Of a stretch of 64,000 nt of DNA, positions 55,705 to 63,248 are shown piece after piece. The position numbers were made by a program, and so were the translations under genes. The notes under the pieces are model-generated. The model worked only from the letters and a program-made list of their open reading frames with translations, made no database searches and was not told where the DNA came from. The DNA is from Longimicrobiales bacterium (GTDB taxonomy: Bacteria; Gemmatimonadota; Gemmatimonadetes; Longimicrobiales; Gaopeijiaceae). The stretch is from positions 2,240,001 through 2,304,000 of the forward strand of contig OZ241869.1 in NCBI GenBank assembly GCA_965202805.1. The letters run 5' to 3'. How positions within the stretch are numbered: the stretch's first letter is position 1; each line of letters starts with the position of its first letter.

Positions 55705-55736
55705 ACTACTTGTGGTTCTACAAGTAATATTGTAGT
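55705..55736. promoter_or_regulatory. AT-rich operator/promoter with two overlapping palindromes upstream of the sigma-54 activator
   Basis: TACTTGT-N6-ACAAGTA (55707-55726) and CTACAA-N6-TTGTAG (55718-55735). Confidence 0.6.
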
Positions 55737-55744
55737 CTGGGGAG

Positions 55745-57268
55745 ATGCCGAACCTCCTGATCAGTTGGGTGGGTCAAGCTGACCTGCGCGCACCACGCGA
55801 AAGCCCTTCCGCCGGTGTGGGACCCATCGCTCAAGCTCTCACTGCGCGCTCCTATGACGCGGCGGTGTTGATCGCGGACTACCCGAAGGAAGAGGTAGCT
55901 CCGTTCCTGGATTGGCTCCGGTCTCGGAGTGAGACGGTCGTTATCGTCTGTTACGAGCCGTTGCCGGGGGGACCAACCCACTTCGGCCAGATCCACGAGG
56001 CTGTGGTCCGCGTCGTATCCGAGGCTCTCGAGCACCACGGAGAGAACGCCGGGCTCAGCTTTCATCTAAGTCCCGGGACTCCGGCCATGGCGGCCGTCTG
56101 GATCATCCTGGCGAAGACGCGCTTTCCGGCGGAACTCATCGAGTCATCGCGTGAGCATGGCGTGCGGACAGCCTCCGTCCCCTTCGACATCTCCGCCGAG
56201 TTCATCCCGGACCTCTTACGAGAGCCCGACCGGCGTCTCCAGAGCCTGACCGCCGGACTTCCGCCAGAAGCCCCGGAATTCACCGACATCATGCATCGCA
56301 GCCAGGCCATGGCCCGCGTGATCGCCAAGGCGCGTCGGGTGGCACCGCGGTCGGTTCCGGTTCTGATCGAAGGTGAATCCGGTACGGGAAAGGAGCTGCT
56401 GGCGCGGGCCATCCACCGGGCGAGCCCCAGGCGGAGCAAACCGTTCAAGGCGGTCAACTGCGGCGCGATCCCGTCGGAACTGGTTGAATCCGAACTGTTC
56501 GGCCACGAGAAGGGCGCGTTCACGGGTGCCGACAAGGCGAGAATCGGCTACTTCGAAGCCTCTCATCACGGTACGCTGTTCCTTGATGAAGTCGGCGAGC
56601 TGCCGCTTCCCGCACAGGTCAAGCTTCTTCGGACGCTTCAGGACGGGAGCGTCCTGCGTGTCGGTTCAACGACGCCGCGCCGCGTTGATGTGCGAATCAT
56701 CGCGGCCACCAATCGGATCCTCGTCGACGAGATCGTCGCCGGACGATTCAGGGAAGATCTGTTCTACCGCCTGGCGGTGGCCGGACTCCAGCTTCCGCCC
56801 CTCAGGGAGAGACAGGGTGACCTGGGCCTTCTTCTGGATCGACTGCTTGAGCGTGTCAACGAGGAGCACGGGGAGCAACCCGGATACGAGCACAAGCAAT
56901 GTTCTGTTGGCGCAAGAAATGTTCTTCTCTCCCATCCCTGGCCGGGGAACGTGCGGGAGCTGCTGAATACGCTGCATCGGCTCGCGATCTGGACTCCGGG
57001 CGCGACGATCCGTCGTGAAGACGTGCGAGAGGCGTTGCTGCCGGTGATCGGCGACGGCGAGACACGCATCCTTGACCGACCGTTGGGCAACGGCCTGAAC
57101 CTCCGGGATTTGCTGGCGGACGTGGCCAGGCACTACCTGGCACGCGCACTCAATGAGACCCGGGGCAACAAGACGCGAGCGGCTCGCTTGTTGGGCCTTT
57201 CGAGCTACCAGACGTTGACCAACTGGCTCAAGAAGTACGAGGTGGACGGCGAGTGGCACGGGTCTTGA
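55745..57268 (+). CDS. Sigma-54 enhancer-binding protein with N-terminal RtcR/CARF-like domain and C-terminal Fis-type HTH
   Basis: LISWVG..DL and FHLSPGTPAM N-domain; GESGTGKE, ESELFGHEKGAFTGA, LFLDEVG, FREDLFYRL, WPGNVREL; GNKTRAARLLGL HTH. Confidence 0.92.
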   Translation: MPNLLISWVGQADLRAPRESPSAGVGPIAQALTARSYDAAVLIADYPKEEVAPFLDWLRSRSETVVIVCYEPLPGGPTHFGQIHEAVVRVVSEALEHHGENAGLSFHLSPGTPAMAAVWIILAKTRFPAELIESSREHGVRTASVPFDISAEFIPDLLREPDRRLQSLTAGLPPEAPEFTDIMHRSQAMARVIAKARRVAPRSVPVLIEGESGTGKELLARAIHRASPRRSKPFKAVNCGAIPSELVESELFGHEKGAFTGADKARIGYFEASHHGTLFLDEVGELPLPAQVKLLRTLQDGSVLRVGSTTPRRVDVRIIAATNRILVDEIVAGRFREDLFYRLAVAGLQLPPLRERQGDLGLLLDRLLERVNEEHGEQPGYEHKQCSVGARNVLLSHPWPGNVRELLNTLHRLAIWTPGATIRREDVREALLPVIGDGETRILDRPLGNGLNLRDLLADVARHYLARALNETRGNKTRAARLLGLSSYQTLTNWLKKYEVDGEWHGS

Positions 57269-57326: not shown

Positions 57327-60300
57327 GTGAAGCGATCTGAACTCGAATCCCGGGTGTCCGCGCTGCGGGATGCACACGGGGGGCACCAAGGCGGTTCTGC
57401 CGATGATGCTTACGGACCGTTCGTTGTTCCCCTCGCGGCGGCAATCCTGCTCCGGTGGGCGGAACACGCCGTGTCTCTCTCCCCGCGCTGGCGCGACCTT
57501 CGGGGACAGGAGTTGACCCGTTTCGTGGTGCAGGCACTTGACGCCGACCTGAAGGCTGACTTGGACCAAGAGGCACTGGATTGGTGGCTATTGTACATCG
57601 TTTTCGCGACCCACTACCTACATGGATCCCTTGCCGATTTCATCATAGACTGGGCTGTGGATTTAGATCTGGAGTCAGGTCGCAGGCGTGATGCGGCGAA
57701 CAATCCACTGGAGGGACTAATCGTCGGCTCAGCCAGCCATCTTCAACCAGGCAGAATCCTCTCCCCGGCCACGCCCAAGCCCGTCGCAAGGCTCATGGTC
57801 GATCTGGCGAATCCCCGCCCTGGAGAGCGCATTTATGATCCATGTTTCGGCCGCGGCGATCTGCTAACGGCGGCAGCCGGCAGACTCGCCGAACAGACCA
57901 GTCTCGTGCCGGAGAGCCTGGGAGATTCCAAGCAATTCTCTATTGGAGCCGGAACAGATGGTCCAGCGGTCGTGGTTGGGCTTGCCCGCATGGTTCTCGC
58001 CGGCATCGACGATCTGGGCTTCCAGTCATACGACGTGTTGAATCAGGCATCCGAGAGTGCGCCGTCTCCCGAACAGTTCGACTGCATTCTCTCCGCTCCT
58101 CCAGCGGGACGGAGGACGTGGGCGGGCGCCGCGGTCGACATCGAGACACAGGCCCTCCGGCACATGATGGCTTCTCTGCGTGAGGGCGGTCGAGCGGTCG
58201 TCGCCCTTCCCGAAGGCCTGCTGTTCAGGCGCGGCTTGGACCGCAAGGTCCGCCGGAAGCTTCTGTCCGACTTTCGGGTGAAAGGCGTGGTGTCGCTGCC
58301 GGAGGGGGCGTTCCAACCGTTCTCGAAGATCAGGAGAAGCCTGGTTCTCTTTCGCCGGGAGAAGCCCGCCCGGACGGTTCGGTTCCTCCAAGTGGAAGAA
58401 TGGCCGTCCTTTCGGCCCAACGACGCGCTTGCCCGCGAGCAAGCTCTGGAGACGGCGCGCACCGTCGCCGAAACGTTCAGGAATGGATCGTCGGACGACG
58501 ACGCGTGGGAGACACCGATTGCGAAGCTTGCGGAGCGCGGATGGGAATTAGTCGCGAAGAGAACGGGCGAAGAGAGTCTCTGCTATTCGCTCTCCGCTCT
58601 CGCCAATGAGAACGAGGGGTTCGAGGCACGACCACTCGGCGAAGTGGCGGAGATCTTCCTCGGTGTGCCCAATTGGAGCGGCACAGCTACGTCGGACAAG
58701 AATGATCCTTCCGTCGTCGCCGGCATCGTGCGTGCGGCGGACGTCGGGAAGCGACGCATCCGGAATCCGTCACGCTTCGTCACCGGCTCCCATGCAGCAA
58801 GAGTCCTTCTTGAGCATCGGTTACGGGTGGGAGACGTTCTGCTGAGTGTTTCCGGCACGGTCGGCAAGACCGGAGTCGTTTTCGAATCGTCCGATCTCGT
58901 CGGTGCGTTGGCTGCCCGCGGATTAGCCGTCATACGCCCTGGGCCGCAGGTGTCGCCGCTCTTTCTGAGACGCCTGCTGGCGTCCGAGACCTATCAGAAC
59001 TGGCTCCACGGGCATGCCCGAGGCGTATCGATCCAGCACCTCTCGGTCCAGGCCATCAGGCGTCTCCCTGTGCCCGTGCCTCGTTTGTCGATCCAAGAGC
59101 GTCTCCTTCGGCATGTATCCACACGCGACAGTGATGTACTCTCCAGATTCCGCCACATTCTTGGCGATGGCAGCTATTCGATAGATGTTTGGCTGCACGG
59201 CTCCCAAGTGCGGGCGGTACGTTCAGCTACCGATGCAGCTGACCGCCTAACACTCTTGGAGAAGACCGCGGACTCCCTCCAGGCGCTGCGGAATCAGGTG
59301 GTGCACGTTGACGGAAACGCGGAGCCGGGCCTGAATCGGTGGCTTCTGGCGCTCGCGGACTCGATGAGGACGTTCCAAGGTCTTAGCCACGTTCCCACCG
59401 GACCGGAGCGTGTGGCGATCCTCGATCGCGCGCAAGCGCGCATCGAGCGCATTCTGGCGGATCTCGTCAAGTCGTCTTCGCCAAATGCAGGCCCGGCGAG
59501 GAAGGCCACCCGCAGCATCTCCCGAATCGTTCGTTTGGAACGCGAGTCCATGCTGGAAAACGTGGAGATGGAACCGTTTGTCAGGCGGAGTTCGGTCCCG
59601 GCCGGGAAAGAAGCCGAAGTCCAGGTCTCGCTCAACAACCGGTCCCGTCTTGCCCTCCGCAACGTGTCGGTCTCGACCCGTCCGAATATCGGGGCTTCGC
59701 GCGTACCCTACCTGGCTGGTGAAAGGAAACTGAGTTTCCCTGTGCAAATTCCGGCAAGCGCGCCGGTGGGCAACTATCGGTTCCAGGTCCAGTGGCGAGC
59801 CGACCGGCTCGATGGCCAGCGGGTGCTCGGCGATGCTCCGCTCGCGGTCAGGGTCAGCGTAGCTCGAGAGACGGCTCCTCCGGGCGACCTCGGAACCAGC
59901 CCCTATATTGTCGGAAGCCCGATCGACCGGGACGAAATGTTCTTCGGTCGCGAGGACATCATCAACAAGATCCGCCGACAGCTTTCCACCCGCCACCGGG
60001 CCAACGTCGTCCTGCTGGAGGGCAACCGGAGGACGGGTAAGACCTCCATTCTCGGACGGCTACAGGCACCCGACGTGCTGCCAGGCTGGATCACGGTTAA
60101 CTGCTCGCTACAGGGAGGCGAGGGTCACGAAAGCAAGCCTGGATTGTCTACCAACGAGGTGTTCCGGCTAATGGCTCGTCATATCGGGTTGGCCGCTCAC
60201 GCCGCGGGGGTCCGCGTATGGTTACCCGACATGGATCCGCCCGACTCAAGGAAGCGGTTCAAGATCGCCTTCACCAAGGCCGTGCGGCAGGCATTCTCGG

Positions 60301-61151
60301 GTTCCCGACCCTTCGAGACGTTCGAACTCTTCCTACAGACCGTGATCGACACTGCAAAGCCTCGACGCATCCTCCTGATGCTCGACGAGTTCGACAAGCT
60401 GCAGGAGGGCATCGACAACGGCGTCACGAGCCCCCAGGTTCCCGAGAACATCCGCTATCTGTTGCACACCTATCCCGGCATATCCGCTGTACTGACCGGT
60501 TCCCGCCGTCTGAAGCGCCTTCGCGAGGAATACTGGTCCGCGCTGTTCGGACTCGGGCATCGTGTTGCCGTAAGCGAGCTTCGAGGGCGAGATGCGCGCC
60601 TGCTCGTAACTCGACCAGTGGAAGGACGACTCTCCTACGTGCCGGAGGCGAGAGACCGCGTGGTCAGTCTGTGCGCCCGGCACCCGTTCCTGATCCAATC
60701 CCTGTGCAACCGCATCTTCGACCGCGCCGCCGAGTCGGGCAGACGAGTCGTGACGGTCGGTGACGCGAACCGGGCCGCCAAGGAGATGGTGAGAGACAAC
60801 GAGCACTTCCGTACATTGTGGGACTACGCCGAAACCGAGCGGAAGAGATTTATTCTCGCATGGTGCCAGAGACTCCGAAGAGGACCGGATCCCGTTACTC
60901 TGAGCTTGCTTGAAACGAAACTCGAGGAATCAGGCGTCATCGTACCTCGCGGTCACCGTCTGGGAGACGATCTGGAGTTTCTCCGCGAACTCGAGCTCGT
61001 CAGGCTCGATAACCGGACGAGCGAGTCCGCGTACATGCTGGCGGTGCCATTGATGGGGATGTGGATCAAAGGCAGTATCGACTTTGAGAACCAGCGCCGG
61101 CGGGCGGTCCGCGAAGGCGAGGAACTGGATGATGGCGGTGAGGAATCATGA
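57327..61151 (+). CDS. Fusion: HsdM-like N6-MTase fold (motif IV degenerate) + HsdS-like TRD + Ig-like domain + STAND-type P-loop ATPase with probable wHTH
   Basis: IYDPCFGRG (motif I), FDCILSAPPAG (motif IV position), GRAVVALPEGLLFR, VVSLPEGAF; TRD GDVLLSVSGTVGK...LPVPVP..SIQ; SPYIVGSP..FFGRE, Walker A GNRRTGKT, Walker B LLMLDEFD. Confidence 0.85.
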   Translation: MKRSELESRVSALRDAHGGHQGGSADDAYGPFVVPLAAAILLRWAEHAVSLSPRWRDLRGQELTRFVVQALDADLKADLDQEALDWWLLYIVFATHYLHGSLADFIIDWAVDLDLESGRRRDAANNPLEGLIVGSASHLQPGRILSPATPKPVARLMVDLANPRPGERIYDPCFGRGDLLTAAAGRLAEQTSLVPESLGDSKQFSIGAGTDGPAVVVGLARMVLAGIDDLGFQSYDVLNQASESAPSPEQFDCILSAPPAGRRTWAGAAVDIETQALRHMMASLREGGRAVVALPEGLLFRRGLDRKVRRKLLSDFRVKGVVSLPEGAFQPFSKIRRSLVLFRREKPARTVRFLQVEEWPSFRPNDALAREQALETARTVAETFRNGSSDDDAWETPIAKLAERGWELVAKRTGEESLCYSLSALANENEGFEARPLGEVAEIFLGVPNWSGTATSDKNDPSVVAGIVRAADVGKRRIRNPSRFVTGSHAARVLLEHRLRVGDVLLSVSGTVGKTGVVFESSDLVGALAARGLAVIRPGPQVSPLFLRRLLASETYQNWLHGHARGVSIQHLSVQAIRRLPVPVPRLSIQERLLRHVSTRDSDVLSRFRHILGDGSYSIDVWLHGSQVRAVRSATDAADRLTLLEKTADSLQALRNQVVHVDGNAEPGLNRWLLALADSMRTFQGLSHVPTGPERVAILDRAQARIERILADLVKSSSPNAGPARKATRSISRIVRLERESMLENVEMEPFVRRSSVPAGKEAEVQVSLNNRSRLALRNVSVSTRPNIGASRVPYLAGERKLSFPVQIPASAPVGNYRFQVQWRADRLDGQRVLGDAPLAVRVSVARETAPPGDLGTSPYIVGSPIDRDEMFFGREDIINKIRRQLSTRHRANVVLLEGNRRTGKTSILGRLQAPDVLPGWITVNCSLQGGEGHESKPGLSTNEVFRLMARHIGLAAHAAGVRVWLPDMDPPDSRKRFKIAFTKAVRQAFSGSRPFETFELFLQTVIDTAKPRRILLMLDEFDKLQEGIDNGVTSPQVPENIRYLLHTYPGISAVLTGSRRLKRLREEYWSALFGLGHRVAVSELRGRDARLLVTRPVEGRLSYVPEARDRVVSLCARHPFLIQSLCNRIFDRAAESGRRVVTVGDANRAAKEMVRDNEHFRTLWDYAETERKRFILAWCQRLRRGPDPVTLSLLETKLEESGVIVPRGHRLGDDLEFLRELELVRLDNRTSESAYMLAVPLMGMWIKGSIDFENQRRRAVREGEELDDGGEES

Positions 61152-62713
61152 ACGACCGTCCGTACCAGGTCCTGGGCGATGGCGTTCCCCGGATGCTCGG
61201 TCGCAAGCGCATCTTTCGCAAGCTTCTTGGGCATTTGCTCAAAAACACACCGGATCATGTATGCGTTGTGGGGCCAACGCTATTCGGTAAATCGGTTCTT
61301 CTGCATCACCTCAGTTCGCACTTGAAGAGCGAAGACGATCATTACCTCACCTCGGTATACTGGGATCTCCGACACGGAACGCCCAGAACGGACGCCGAGT
61401 TCAGGGAGCGTCTTGCACAACGAGTCAGAGTTGCGCTGAAACCGGTGCGTGCCGACCTCGCGGAGTACCTGGATCCCGAAGATGAAGATCCCTTCGAACT
61501 GCTCGATATCGCCTTCGAGGAAATGCAAGGTGAAGGCCTCCGCCTTCTCGCCGTGCTCGACGGATTCGATCATGTTCTTGGTGGCGGGACCATTACCAGG
61601 AATTTCTGGGACAGAATGCGCGTGCTCGCCCAGCGCGGAAGTCTTCGGCTCGTGACCGGGAGCCGAGGAAGACTCCGGGAGCTTTGCAAGAGCGAAGACT
61701 CCCGGACTTCGGACTTCTGGGAGATTTTCTTCGATACGCCGCTCCAGGTCGGTTGCTTCGAAGAAGACGACTGGGATGGTTTCCTGGAGCCGTTCGCATC
61801 GAACGGCGTTGACGTTGAGGAACCCGCACGAAAAGAGCTGGCGAACTGGACCGGAGGCGTCCCGATTCTCGCCGCTTCATTGGCACAAAGGTTAATGGAG
61901 GACAGTGCGGTCACCGACTTGGTGACAAAGCCTTTCGTAGACCGAGTAGCGGGTGCGATGGCCAATGACGCTCCCGAGTCCATCCGCCAACTGTGGGATG
62001 ATTGCCCAGTCGAAGTACAGTCCCTGTTGACGGATCTTGGCAGCGGAGAGATTCCGGTCGGCGAGGTGCCGCCTGATCGTATTCGCTTCCTCAAGAGCCG
62101 GGGCTTCGTTGAGACTTCAGGCGGAAAGCTGCGATCTGCCTGCCGGCTGATGAAGGAATTTGCCCGTCAGCGCCAAAGTGAAGTCACAACCCTTCGACGC
62201 CTATTCGGCGACGAGGATCGGTTTGAAGCAAACCTTCGAGGGTTGCTCGAACTTCGTTTGGAGGGCATCAAGAATCGAGTGGATCCGACATTGGCTGGCT
62301 ACGCACTGAAGGCGATCCGGGAACTACCCGAACCTGATCATGCGATCGTGTGGATGCGAAGCTTCTCCGAGACAGCACTTGACCTGATCTGGAATGCAGA
62401 GCTCGAGCGTGACGACTCACTGCCAGAGGCCTGGGAGACCAGTGGGATTGAATTCGACGAGCACGATCAACTGCCCGTGAGTCGCGGCAAGCAGTGTGGA
62501 ATCCTCCGCAAGGCGACCGGCTCGGCGAACACCCCCCGGGTTACCAGATTTCTGACGAAGCCAGCGTTCCTGTTGCTGGACCATCTGCACGCCGTTGGGG
62601 ACTTCGGACAGCACAGGGAAGGAGCAACGATATCCGTGCCAACAGCCGCCGCCTTTTGTCTGTCGGCGATCGAGCTTTGCGAGAGGCTGGCTTGCGATCT
62701 GCCGAGGAGGTAA
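61148..62713 (+). CDS. Second STAND-like P-loop ATPase with C-terminal HEPN/DUF4145-like helical domain
   Basis: PY...MLGRK, Walker A GPTLFGKS, Walker B LAVLDGFD, WTGGVP; C-terminal MRSFSETAL...LHAVGDFGQH; ATGA-coupled to the upstream gene. Confidence 0.75.
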   Translation: MNDRPYQVLGDGVPRMLGRKRIFRKLLGHLLKNTPDHVCVVGPTLFGKSVLLHHLSSHLKSEDDHYLTSVYWDLRHGTPRTDAEFRERLAQRVRVALKPVRADLAEYLDPEDEDPFELLDIAFEEMQGEGLRLLAVLDGFDHVLGGGTITRNFWDRMRVLAQRGSLRLVTGSRGRLRELCKSEDSRTSDFWEIFFDTPLQVGCFEEDDWDGFLEPFASNGVDVEEPARKELANWTGGVPILAASLAQRLMEDSAVTDLVTKPFVDRVAGAMANDAPESIRQLWDDCPVEVQSLLTDLGSGEIPVGEVPPDRIRFLKSRGFVETSGGKLRSACRLMKEFARQRQSEVTTLRRLFGDEDRFEANLRGLLELRLEGIKNRVDPTLAGYALKAIRELPEPDHAIVWMRSFSETALDLIWNAELERDDSLPEAWETSGIEFDEHDQLPVSRGKQCGILRKATGSANTPRVTRFLTKPAFLLLDHLHAVGDFGQHREGATISVPTAAAFCLSAIELCERLACDLPRR

Positions 62714-62792: not shown

Positions 62793-63248
62793 TCAGGCCA
62801 GCAGCGCCTCTCCCCTCCGGAGCGGATCCCGGATGCGCAGTTCCGGGAAGAGCATGAAGTCCCGGTCCCGGGACAGGAGAACCTCGACCCCGTGCGCGAC
62901 GCAGATCGCGGCGACCCGCGCGTCGTGCACCACGCCCCCGTGCACGCGCGGGCGCCGGATGAAGGGTCTCAGCGTGGCGGGAAAGTCGTCGGTTTCGCCG
63001 ATCAGGCGATTCGATGGCGACGCGGCCCATGCTTCCAACTGTCGCCACGCCCGGTCCGAGGTGCTCGCCTCCTCCTTCCGTATTCGGCGGTTGGTGACCA
63101 CGCTCAGGAACTCGAAGCAGCAGGGCCAGGGGATGGCCCACGGGTGGCGCCCCTCCGCCAGCCTTCGCATGATCTCCCGAGCGGTCGCGTGCACCCGCGA
63201 TTCCCGGCGGTGCGCTTAGACCAGCACGCTGGTGTCTACGGCGATCAC
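62793..63248 (-). pseudogene. vapC: VapC PIN-domain toxin with a nonsense codon at position 11
   Basis: Minus strand reads VIAVDTSVLV*AHRRES...EFLSVVT...VHDARVAA...SRDRDF; TAA at 63216-63218 where the family pattern DTxxLVYAH has Tyr. Confidence 0.85.

Follow-up and report, generated by a model that had tools for sequence, protein, structure and literature searches.

A pseudo-methyltransferase fused to a STAND ATPase in a sigma54-led cassette: a possible decoy sensor beside type I restriction

The window analyzed here, a stretch of 64,000 nucleotides from a Longimicrobiales bacterium (contig OZ241869.1, positions 2,240,001 to 2,304,000), carries a 7.2-kb cassette of three long genes. A CARF-sigma54 activator and a sigma54 promoter are followed by a fusion of a type I methylase-like module to a STAND ATPase and by a second STAND gene, with spacings of 58 bp and −4 bp. 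The fusion is a single intact open reading frame on the plus strand (57327-61151; 1274 amino acids (aa)) in which an HsdM-like region, one target recognition domain (TRD), a helical domain, an immunoglobulin (Ig)-like sandwich, an Orc1/Cdc6-like STAND ATPase and a winged helix-turn-helix succeed one another. The features of the fusion and of the gene behind it are as follows.

57327..57758, plus strand: HsdM N-terminal-like helical domain, in this lineage about 21 aa shorter and undergoing erosion; can be aligned to HsdM and other fusions from its GTG start codon onward
57759..58571, plus strand: pseudo-methyltransferase domain that keeps motif I (57837-57857), lacks the motif II acid (about 57945-57959) and reads APPA at motif IV (58095-58106)
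58620..59126, plus strand: single HsdS-type TRD, net charge +11
59127..59561, plus strand: helical bundle; HEPN-like R-N-x-x-x-H at 59289-59306, patchily kept
59562..59876, plus strand: Ig-like beta-sandwich, all-beta in the model; weak NPCBM_assoc, CARDB and DUF11 matches in 3-5 of 26 members
59889..60596, plus strand: STAND/Orc1-Cdc6-like AAA+ ATPase; Walker A GNRRTGKT at 60021-60044, Walker B DE at 60384-60389
60597..61151, plus strand: AAA+ lid and winged helix, from model secondary structure; aligned through residue 1249 with 2qen and 2fna
61148..62713, plus strand: second STAND ATPase, 521 aa, directly downstream; its start overlaps the fusion stop
61271-61294, plus strand: Walker A of the second ATPase, kept (GK in 145/145)
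61556-61570, plus strand: Walker B of the second ATPase, D-G-F-D without glutamate (G 143, D 2, E 0 of 145)
62228-62710, plus strand: C-terminal HEPN-like domain of the second ATPase (H489 in 145/145, R404 in 143/145)

Architecture of the fusion

The methylase part matches Pfam N6_Mtase (aa 149-399, E = 1.5e-23), with 5ybb as its closest sequence match (E = 2.5e-24), and the TRD part matches the PADLOC profile Specificity_I (aa 437-599, E = 1.4e-14). A model built from an alignment (mean predicted local distance difference test score (pLDDT) 84.4) contained one TRD, a helical bundle, a beta-sandwich and a STAND ATPase with winged helix; a single-sequence fold was uninformative (pLDDT 37.6). 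Of the features that define an HsdM, the type I M fold with the S-adenosylmethionine (SAM)-binding motif I is present and the catalytic (N/D/S)PP(Y/F/W) is absent. Those of the STAND/Orc1-Cdc6-like class are all in place: P-loop, intact Walker A and Walker B, lid and winged helix. In the model the protein stops after the winged helix, with no effector or repeat sensor C-terminal to the STAND ATPase.

The original prediction for this gene, made from the letters alone, had named a retained motif I (DPCFGRG, 57837-57857), a single TRD, a beta-sandwich and an ATPase with both Walker motifs, all of which were borne out. What it took for a helical linker is indeed helical and is a domain of about 145 aa with R-N-x-x-x-H, not a mere linker. 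The catalytic loss that it read as SAPPA (58092-58106) was sharpened to A-P-P-A in place of N-P-P-Y/F, so both the catalytic and the stacking aromatic residues are gone. APPA is also present in three further sequences (P0002, P0003 and L001).

The top Foldseek match of the fusion was 7eew, a single-chain methylase crystallized with Ocr. The methylase and TRD layout superposes on monomeric DNA-bound CamA, M.BseCI and M.TaqI, and the ATPase is closest in structure to Cdc6/Orc1 and TnsC, which bind DNA. These whole-model searches hardly probed the helical and Ig domains, and PDB sequence searches with the two helical domains returned chance helical bundles only. The ATPase and winged-helix regions of this copy (59889-61148) are unusually basic (+9 versus −0.2 in the family and +5 versus −6.3, respectively). 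An assembly error was rejected: two runs of one study cover the cassette piecewise and a contig from a second study matches 57578-58388, each with 0 differences.

Motif IV drift, selection and type I context

Motif IV was compared in a close and a diverse set. A word search returned 990 homologues; the best 120 were aligned with the query, and 114 rows, one of them this protein called from a later start, cover motif IV. None of the 114 carries N, D or S before PP, AVPPW being commonest (76). The diverse set came from a search with the C-terminal half alone, from which the best 150 representatives at 50% identity were taken: 119 match a methylase profile and 112 cover motif IV, while the 31 members lacking a methylase match comprise 30 proteins shorter than 840 aa and one helicase fusion. 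The first position of motif IV in the 112 takes 14 different residues (N 40, V 23, A 14, D 12, C 6, H 4, S 3, T 3, I 2 and five singletons); neighboring HsdM genes, taken whole, have NPPY in 19/19. A tree built from the ATPase region (136 rows, two near-duplicates and the helicase fusion having been dropped) requires at least 27 changes of the motif IV state (shuffled mean 39.6, minimum 32). The homologue alignment that the original prediction had proposed as a check thus excludes close homologues that keep NPPF, and strain-specific decay of motif IV was rejected, since the diverse set drifts too.

The SAM motifs tell of retention: in the diverse set motif I has D in 106/111 and G in 107/111, motif II has E/D in 109/111 and motif III has D/N in 107/112. 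The ratio of nonsynonymous to synonymous substitution rates (dN/dS) of the methylase domain was 0.32, 0.27 and 0.07 in three pairs, none of whose members has the catalytic residue, which points to purifying selection on a dead domain. Because the SAM motifs are kept under such selection while motif IV drifts, the loss is a family-wide drift in which the fold, not the chemistry, is retained.

This lineage has gone further. The motif II acid is Gly in this copy, and the lineage as a whole has lost the aromatic of motif IV, motif X and some 21 aa from the N-domain. Identity to an outgroup with VPPW is 0.29 for the N-domain and 0.41 for the SAM half (0.57 and 0.81 within the outgroup), compared with 0.60 for the second half of the methylase, 0.52 for the TRD and 0.78 for the ATPase (0.75, 0.70 and 0.85 within the outgroup). 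The faster loss on the SAM side and the milder loss on the DNA side argue for a retained DNA-facing surface and against SAM sensing in this copy.

Gene order was surveyed in 30 loci from named genomes of many phyla, with orthologues assigned by tblastn. The common order is CARF-sigma54 activator, hsdR, hsdM, hsdS, fusion and second ATPase. The activator lies inside the fetched flank in 21/30 loci, an hsdM orthologue precedes the fusion pair in 23/30, and the second ATPase directly follows the fusion in 27 of the 28 loci that reach the fusion's ATPase; in the one exception a contig end truncates the locus. Their own hsdRMS is absent from 7/30 loci, of which L011 retains an hsdR remnant, and from the window, where no HsdS or HsdR stands between regulator and fusion and no separate hsdM or hsdS occurs in the cassette (ronA itself was not searched for). 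The genome has no orthologue of the family cassette's HsdR (best match 29% over part); it encodes a separate type I restriction-modification system elsewhere (G000:C1:616560-629095; HsdM with NPPY, HsdR of 1002 aa). That locus also holds an inserted 863-aa gene, two upstream genes, which we take to be McrBC-like, and a CTTGT-N6-ACAAG site at 628135 that is possibly there by chance.

The fusion methylase is no closer to the HsdM of its own locus (37.8% identity) than to other HsdMs (37.7%); within the set, neighboring HsdMs share 73.5% and fusions 48%. Across 18 loci the TRDs of the fusions share 35% identity and those of HsdS 26%, and the fusion TRD shows no correspondence to the HsdS beside it. 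On these numbers a recent origin of the fusion as a copy of the neighboring hsdM or hsdS was rejected. Equal distance from the own HsdM together with a conserved TRD suggests an old paralogue with a settled ligand.

Within the class, 3/151 genomes, counting this one, have the fusion ATPase; among 72,556 plasmid records it occurs on 3. On an Acinetobacter ursingii plasmid (L064, 3741-14563) a WYL gene, hsdR, a fusion with HPPV and the partner ATPase follow one another with no hsdM or hsdS between. At L002 (8489-9938), two genes of 327 and 153 aa with no Pfam match occupy the place of hsdRMS between promoter and fusion; its near relative L003 has hsdRMS. P0172 carries a DEAD-box helicase where the methylase-TRD half would be, joined to the same STAND ATPase, which hints at an exchangeable N-terminal slot.

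Partner ATPase, regulator and promoter

The fusion's ATPase region and the partner gave a pair-model score of 0.83, versus 0.00 for the best of 3 controls, with contact agreement of at least 90% and partner pLDDT of at least 82; the pair-score mark is attained by 116/157 solved pairs and 2/215 mismatched pairs. The model thus predicts that the two ATPases bind each other. At the modeled interface, fusion Walker A/B residues 901, 902, 906 and 1021 face partner helix 150-160, which is conserved at W154 (143/145), D155 (139/145) and R158 (134/145) and may supply a trans-acting arginine.

The partner tail has a pattern resembling DUF4145 HEPN, with the full R-x4-H in 2/145, and R[NDH]xxxH occurs in the fusion helical domain of 46/139 diverse members (shuffled mean 3.4, maximum 7). 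Both domains gave weak HEPN-clan Pfam matches under the cut-off, and a small DUF4145 profile scored above 5 bits on 26/145 partner tails versus 0 to 4 in four control sets, likewise weak. The passages of PMC3710099 that bear on this describe HEPN families with H kept and R absent. No Pfam DUF4145 match was found in this genome, no PADLOC 2023 or NCBIfam model matched the partner above noise, and the ESM Atlas held no usable match for the partner tail and, for a homologue, unnamed clusters only; a search for stand-alone partner tails returned 27 matches, 0 with a Pfam domain. A HEPN-like domain as effector is a lead only.

Upstream of the fusion lie three further features.

55707..55726, no strand: palindrome TACTTGT-N6-ACAAGTA, 5′ of the regulator; candidate operator or upstream activating site
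55745..57268, plus strand: CARF-AAA-HTH sigma54 activator (RtcR-like, PspF2 family), 507 aa; PADLOC RtcR_PspF2, 652 bits, aa 3-500
57254..57268, plus strand: sigma54 (−24/−12) promoter-like site TGGCAC-N5-TTGA, overlapping the regulator end; one mismatch

The regulator matches the RtcR_PspF2 family profile almost end to end (PDLC01995, E = 1.8e-196, positions 2-480 of 481), stays under the NCBIfam RtcR cut-off (332.7 versus 650) and has a dN/dS of 0.14 versus L001. The sigma54 consensus is TGGCAC-N5-TTGC, and a site with at most one mismatch to it stands right after the regulator in 14/18 loci, while 0/15 control windows fell below 3 mismatches. The genome encodes rpoN. The pattern is not enriched across the window (44 sites versus 53.6 expected), and support for the promoter comes from its position. 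The regulator frame extends a few codons through the site (57250-57268), where relatives stop just before it; the window and L001 have this read-through and the −12 element TTGA in common. ACTTGT-N6-ACAAGT occurs once in the 4.02-Mb genome, and a motif similar to the palindrome was seen by eye 5′ of the regulator in L001-L003. At L012 (7103-9385) the activator is extended at its N terminus by about 250 aa that match no Pfam family.

RtcR-like/PspF-family CARF activators that head restriction-modification and defense operons, with the type I link, are described in parts of PMC4012209 and PMC11090510, and the operon of the fusion belongs to this sigma54/CARF-led context of restriction and defense. 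Supplementary file 4 of PMC4012209 lists a Desulfococcus oleovorans Hxd3 gene (1505694-1509782) with the fusion's domain set after hsdRMS, labeled only as a type I methyltransferase subunit; the relevant passages of the two papers do not discuss the fusion, the motif loss or the partner ATPase.

The cassette is low in GC content (0.60-0.63 versus about 0.69). It is cleanly absent after glnS in one congener (G117) and absent from three further congeners of five, the fifth having no synteny; it is a removable unit. At its right edge a minus-strand gene (62793-63248), presumably PIN/VapC-like, has an in-frame stop at codon 11, a position at which the frame is open in G117; its downstream frame has no Pfam match at 1e-5. 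Neighboring genes include GmrSD, SAVED-SMODS, EH-signature and RmuC genes.

Candidate mechanism and competing readings

Given the anatomy, motif drift, selection, gene linkage and promoter conservation established above, we tentatively propose, at rather less than an even chance, that the fusion module is a decoy that does not methylate, senses ligands shaped like DNA and stands guard over type I restriction in the manner of Ronin. It would form an inducible back-up of type I restriction, turned on under stress by the CARF-sigma54 activator. Its N-terminal half, an old paralogue of the operon HsdM with one TRD, would have kept the DNA-binding groove with methylation no longer needed and would act as bait for DNA-shaped anti-restriction proteins of the Ocr or ArdA type. 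A filled groove would switch the fused ATPase, which is predicted to pack head to tail with the hydrolysis-deficient second ATPase; oligomerization might then unite the HEPN-like domains and arrest the infected cell. It is probably the second ATPase that makes the switch complete and bears the candidate effector. While the pairing of the ATPases is a prediction from the model, ligand, switch, HEPN activity and cell arrest are what we infer.

The decoy proposal is favored because the catalytic position drifts in the family while SAM motifs I-III are kept, because the dead domain is under purifying selection and the fusion pair follows hsdM in most loci, and because the TRD is more conserved than HsdS TRDs, as expected for a fixed ligand. 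The pair outlasts its own hsdRMS while the host has another type I system, as in Ronin, the top structural match was crystallized with Ocr, and the pair model stands far above its controls. According to the available parts of Silas et al. (bioRxiv 10.1101/2023.04.06.535777), Ronin is a tested HsdMS decoy in which HsdM/HsdS parts without hsdR decoy anti-restriction proteins independently of motif IV catalysis; its HsdM and HsdS are separate, intact proteins and its toxin is a membrane protein of 61 aa, whereas the present module is a one-TRD pseudo-enzyme fused to a STAND ATPase that is paired with another ATPase and usually neighbors a complete type I system. The fusion shares the M and TRD fold, motifs I-III and the operon with the type I core (3ufb, 5ybb and 7eew), and differs from it in having one TRD, no motif IV and a fused ATPase and in not being recopied from the local HsdM/HsdS.

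Several points weigh against this proposal. The 7eew match mirrors fold, not function, and the ATPase pair score may stem from likeness to solved Cdc6/Orc1 (AAA+) dimers. A basic TRD on an Orc1/Cdc6-type ATPase with a winged helix suits the binding of real DNA equally well. Canonical [NDS]PP[FYW] is present in 48/136 diverse members and absent in 88, so about one third of the family, as judged by this motif, may be active methylases; passages of PMC12458937 report that the NPPW motif is required for the function of ARMADA ArmB. The loss of catalysis foreseen by the original prediction holds as a family-wide drift with the fold under selection, though those 48 members may lie outside it. The HEPN assignment is also weak: G stands at the partner's HEPN arginine position in 143/145, the fusion's R-N-x-x-x-H is lost in L001 and most nearest relatives, and hhalign of the helical domains against 11 DUF4145 domains gave non-significant probabilities of 1% and 11%.

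The foremost alternative, somewhat less likely than the decoy though not by much, is that the module reads real DNA. A monomeric pseudo-methylase and TRD would bind a site or modified or damaged DNA, and the two ATPases would be loaded on DNA as a filament, much as BREX PglX works with BrxC and BrxB, with tight sigma54 control limiting self-reaction. The superposition on monomeric DNA-bound enzymes, the nearness of the ATPase to Cdc6/Orc1 and TnsC, the TRD net charge of +11 and the retention of the DNA-facing half and TRD as the SAM half decays all favor such a reader. According to the sections of PMC12839542 that treat it, BREX also combines a methylase-TRD reader with pairs of active and crippled ORC/Cdc6-like STAND ATPases; in the cassette the reader is fused to the active ATPase and mostly dead, and the partner retains its Walker A. 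No PglZ, BrxA, BrxL, BrxC or PglX model appeared in PADLOC/NCBIfam rows for the three cassette proteins (for the fusion, among the best 25 of 90), and MADS scores stayed below threshold (Mad2 41.6 versus 720 bits, Mad5 27.4 versus 400; partner mad8 match E = 0.021), nor is the set of eight MADS genes present. Without methylation of its own, however, a reader would find its site on the host chromosome; the TRD is unlike the local HsdS, and the pair survives loss of hsdM. Taken jointly, the decoy and DNA-reader proposals make it probable that the fusion, without methylating, senses a ligand shaped like DNA and drives a switch made of paired ATPases.

It is unlikely that the fusion is an accessory subunit of the type I enzyme, its dead M-TRD docked on HsdR, HsdM or HsdS to monitor or tune the holoenzyme, like PrrC with EcoPrrI. 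PrrC, an NTPase-HEPN back-up in a type I operon, has an ATPase of the ABC class and keeps watch on the genuine EcoPrrI enzyme; the fusion shares that setting but has a built-in enzyme copy and STAND ATPases. The operon shared with type I genes in 23/30 loci and the plasmid locus L064, with an intact hsdR just ahead of a dead-motif fusion, speak for docking. Yet the fusion is no nearer to its own HsdM than to others, it is under selection where hsdRMS is gone, and this genome has no orthologue of the cassette's HsdR.

A sensor of SAM or S-adenosylhomocysteine levels tripped by phage SAM lyases, which the original prediction had entertained, is improbable. Diverse members do keep motifs I, II and III (106-109 of 111-112) while catalysis drifts, but in this copy both the motif II acid and motif X are missing, the SAM half is changing quickly (0.41 versus 0.81) and a TRD would be superfluous. 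Slightly less probable again is the view that the sensor half is decaying in this lineage, the module working through its ATPases and other domains or being lost. The N-domain deletion (dN/dS of that domain 0.58), the lost motif II acid and aromatic, the TTGA −12 element and four close matches that begin inside the methylase domain suggest decay; against it, eight full-length close copies have intact frames, dN/dS versus L001 is 0.19 for the TRD (95% identical) and 0.12 for the ATPase, and the short matches may be start-call or contig artifacts. That this copy still methylates DNA through an unusual active site is very improbable: fold and motif I are intact and some relatives keep N/DPP(F/W/Y), but APPA lacks the catalytic and stacking residues and the motif II acid is gone.

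Within the decoy proposal, a more specific and rather uncertain picture, drawn by analogy, is an integrated-decoy NLR pair, in which a dead copy of the guarded enzyme inside one STAND protein would catch DNA mimics and activate a HEPN-like partner STAND. CARF-sigma54 alarm control and an exchangeable decoy slot would belong to it, in parallel with plant sensor/helper NLRs. Compared with Avs and other bacterial NLR-like STANDs (8dgc; PMC12803255, in the parts covered), the order is reversed, with the candidate sensor N-terminal, there is no TPR or other repeat domain, and two genes form a hetero-pair.

The original prediction is thus partly supported; it did not include the surrounding cassette with its activator, its promoter and the obligate second ATPase. 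The family is genuine and conserved, has apparently not been described before, and combines known defense parts in a new way, with a tested functional precedent. A partial coverage of the literature, including PMC7159879, PMC12839542 and PMC12803255, holds no description of the fusion or the pair, which leaves absence from print unproven. The family defines a widespread add-on of type I restriction with two ATPases, annotated in databases simply as a methylase. If the fusion is a decoy, it would be, among cases found, the first bacterial STAND receptor to incorporate a guarded enzyme, and the living intermediates from NPPF to APPA would allow a direct test of the origin of a pseudo-enzyme in immunity. 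If it reads DNA, it would offer a three-gene model for BREX-like methylase-ATPase machines. Under either reading, genes of this kind should not be counted as active methylases.

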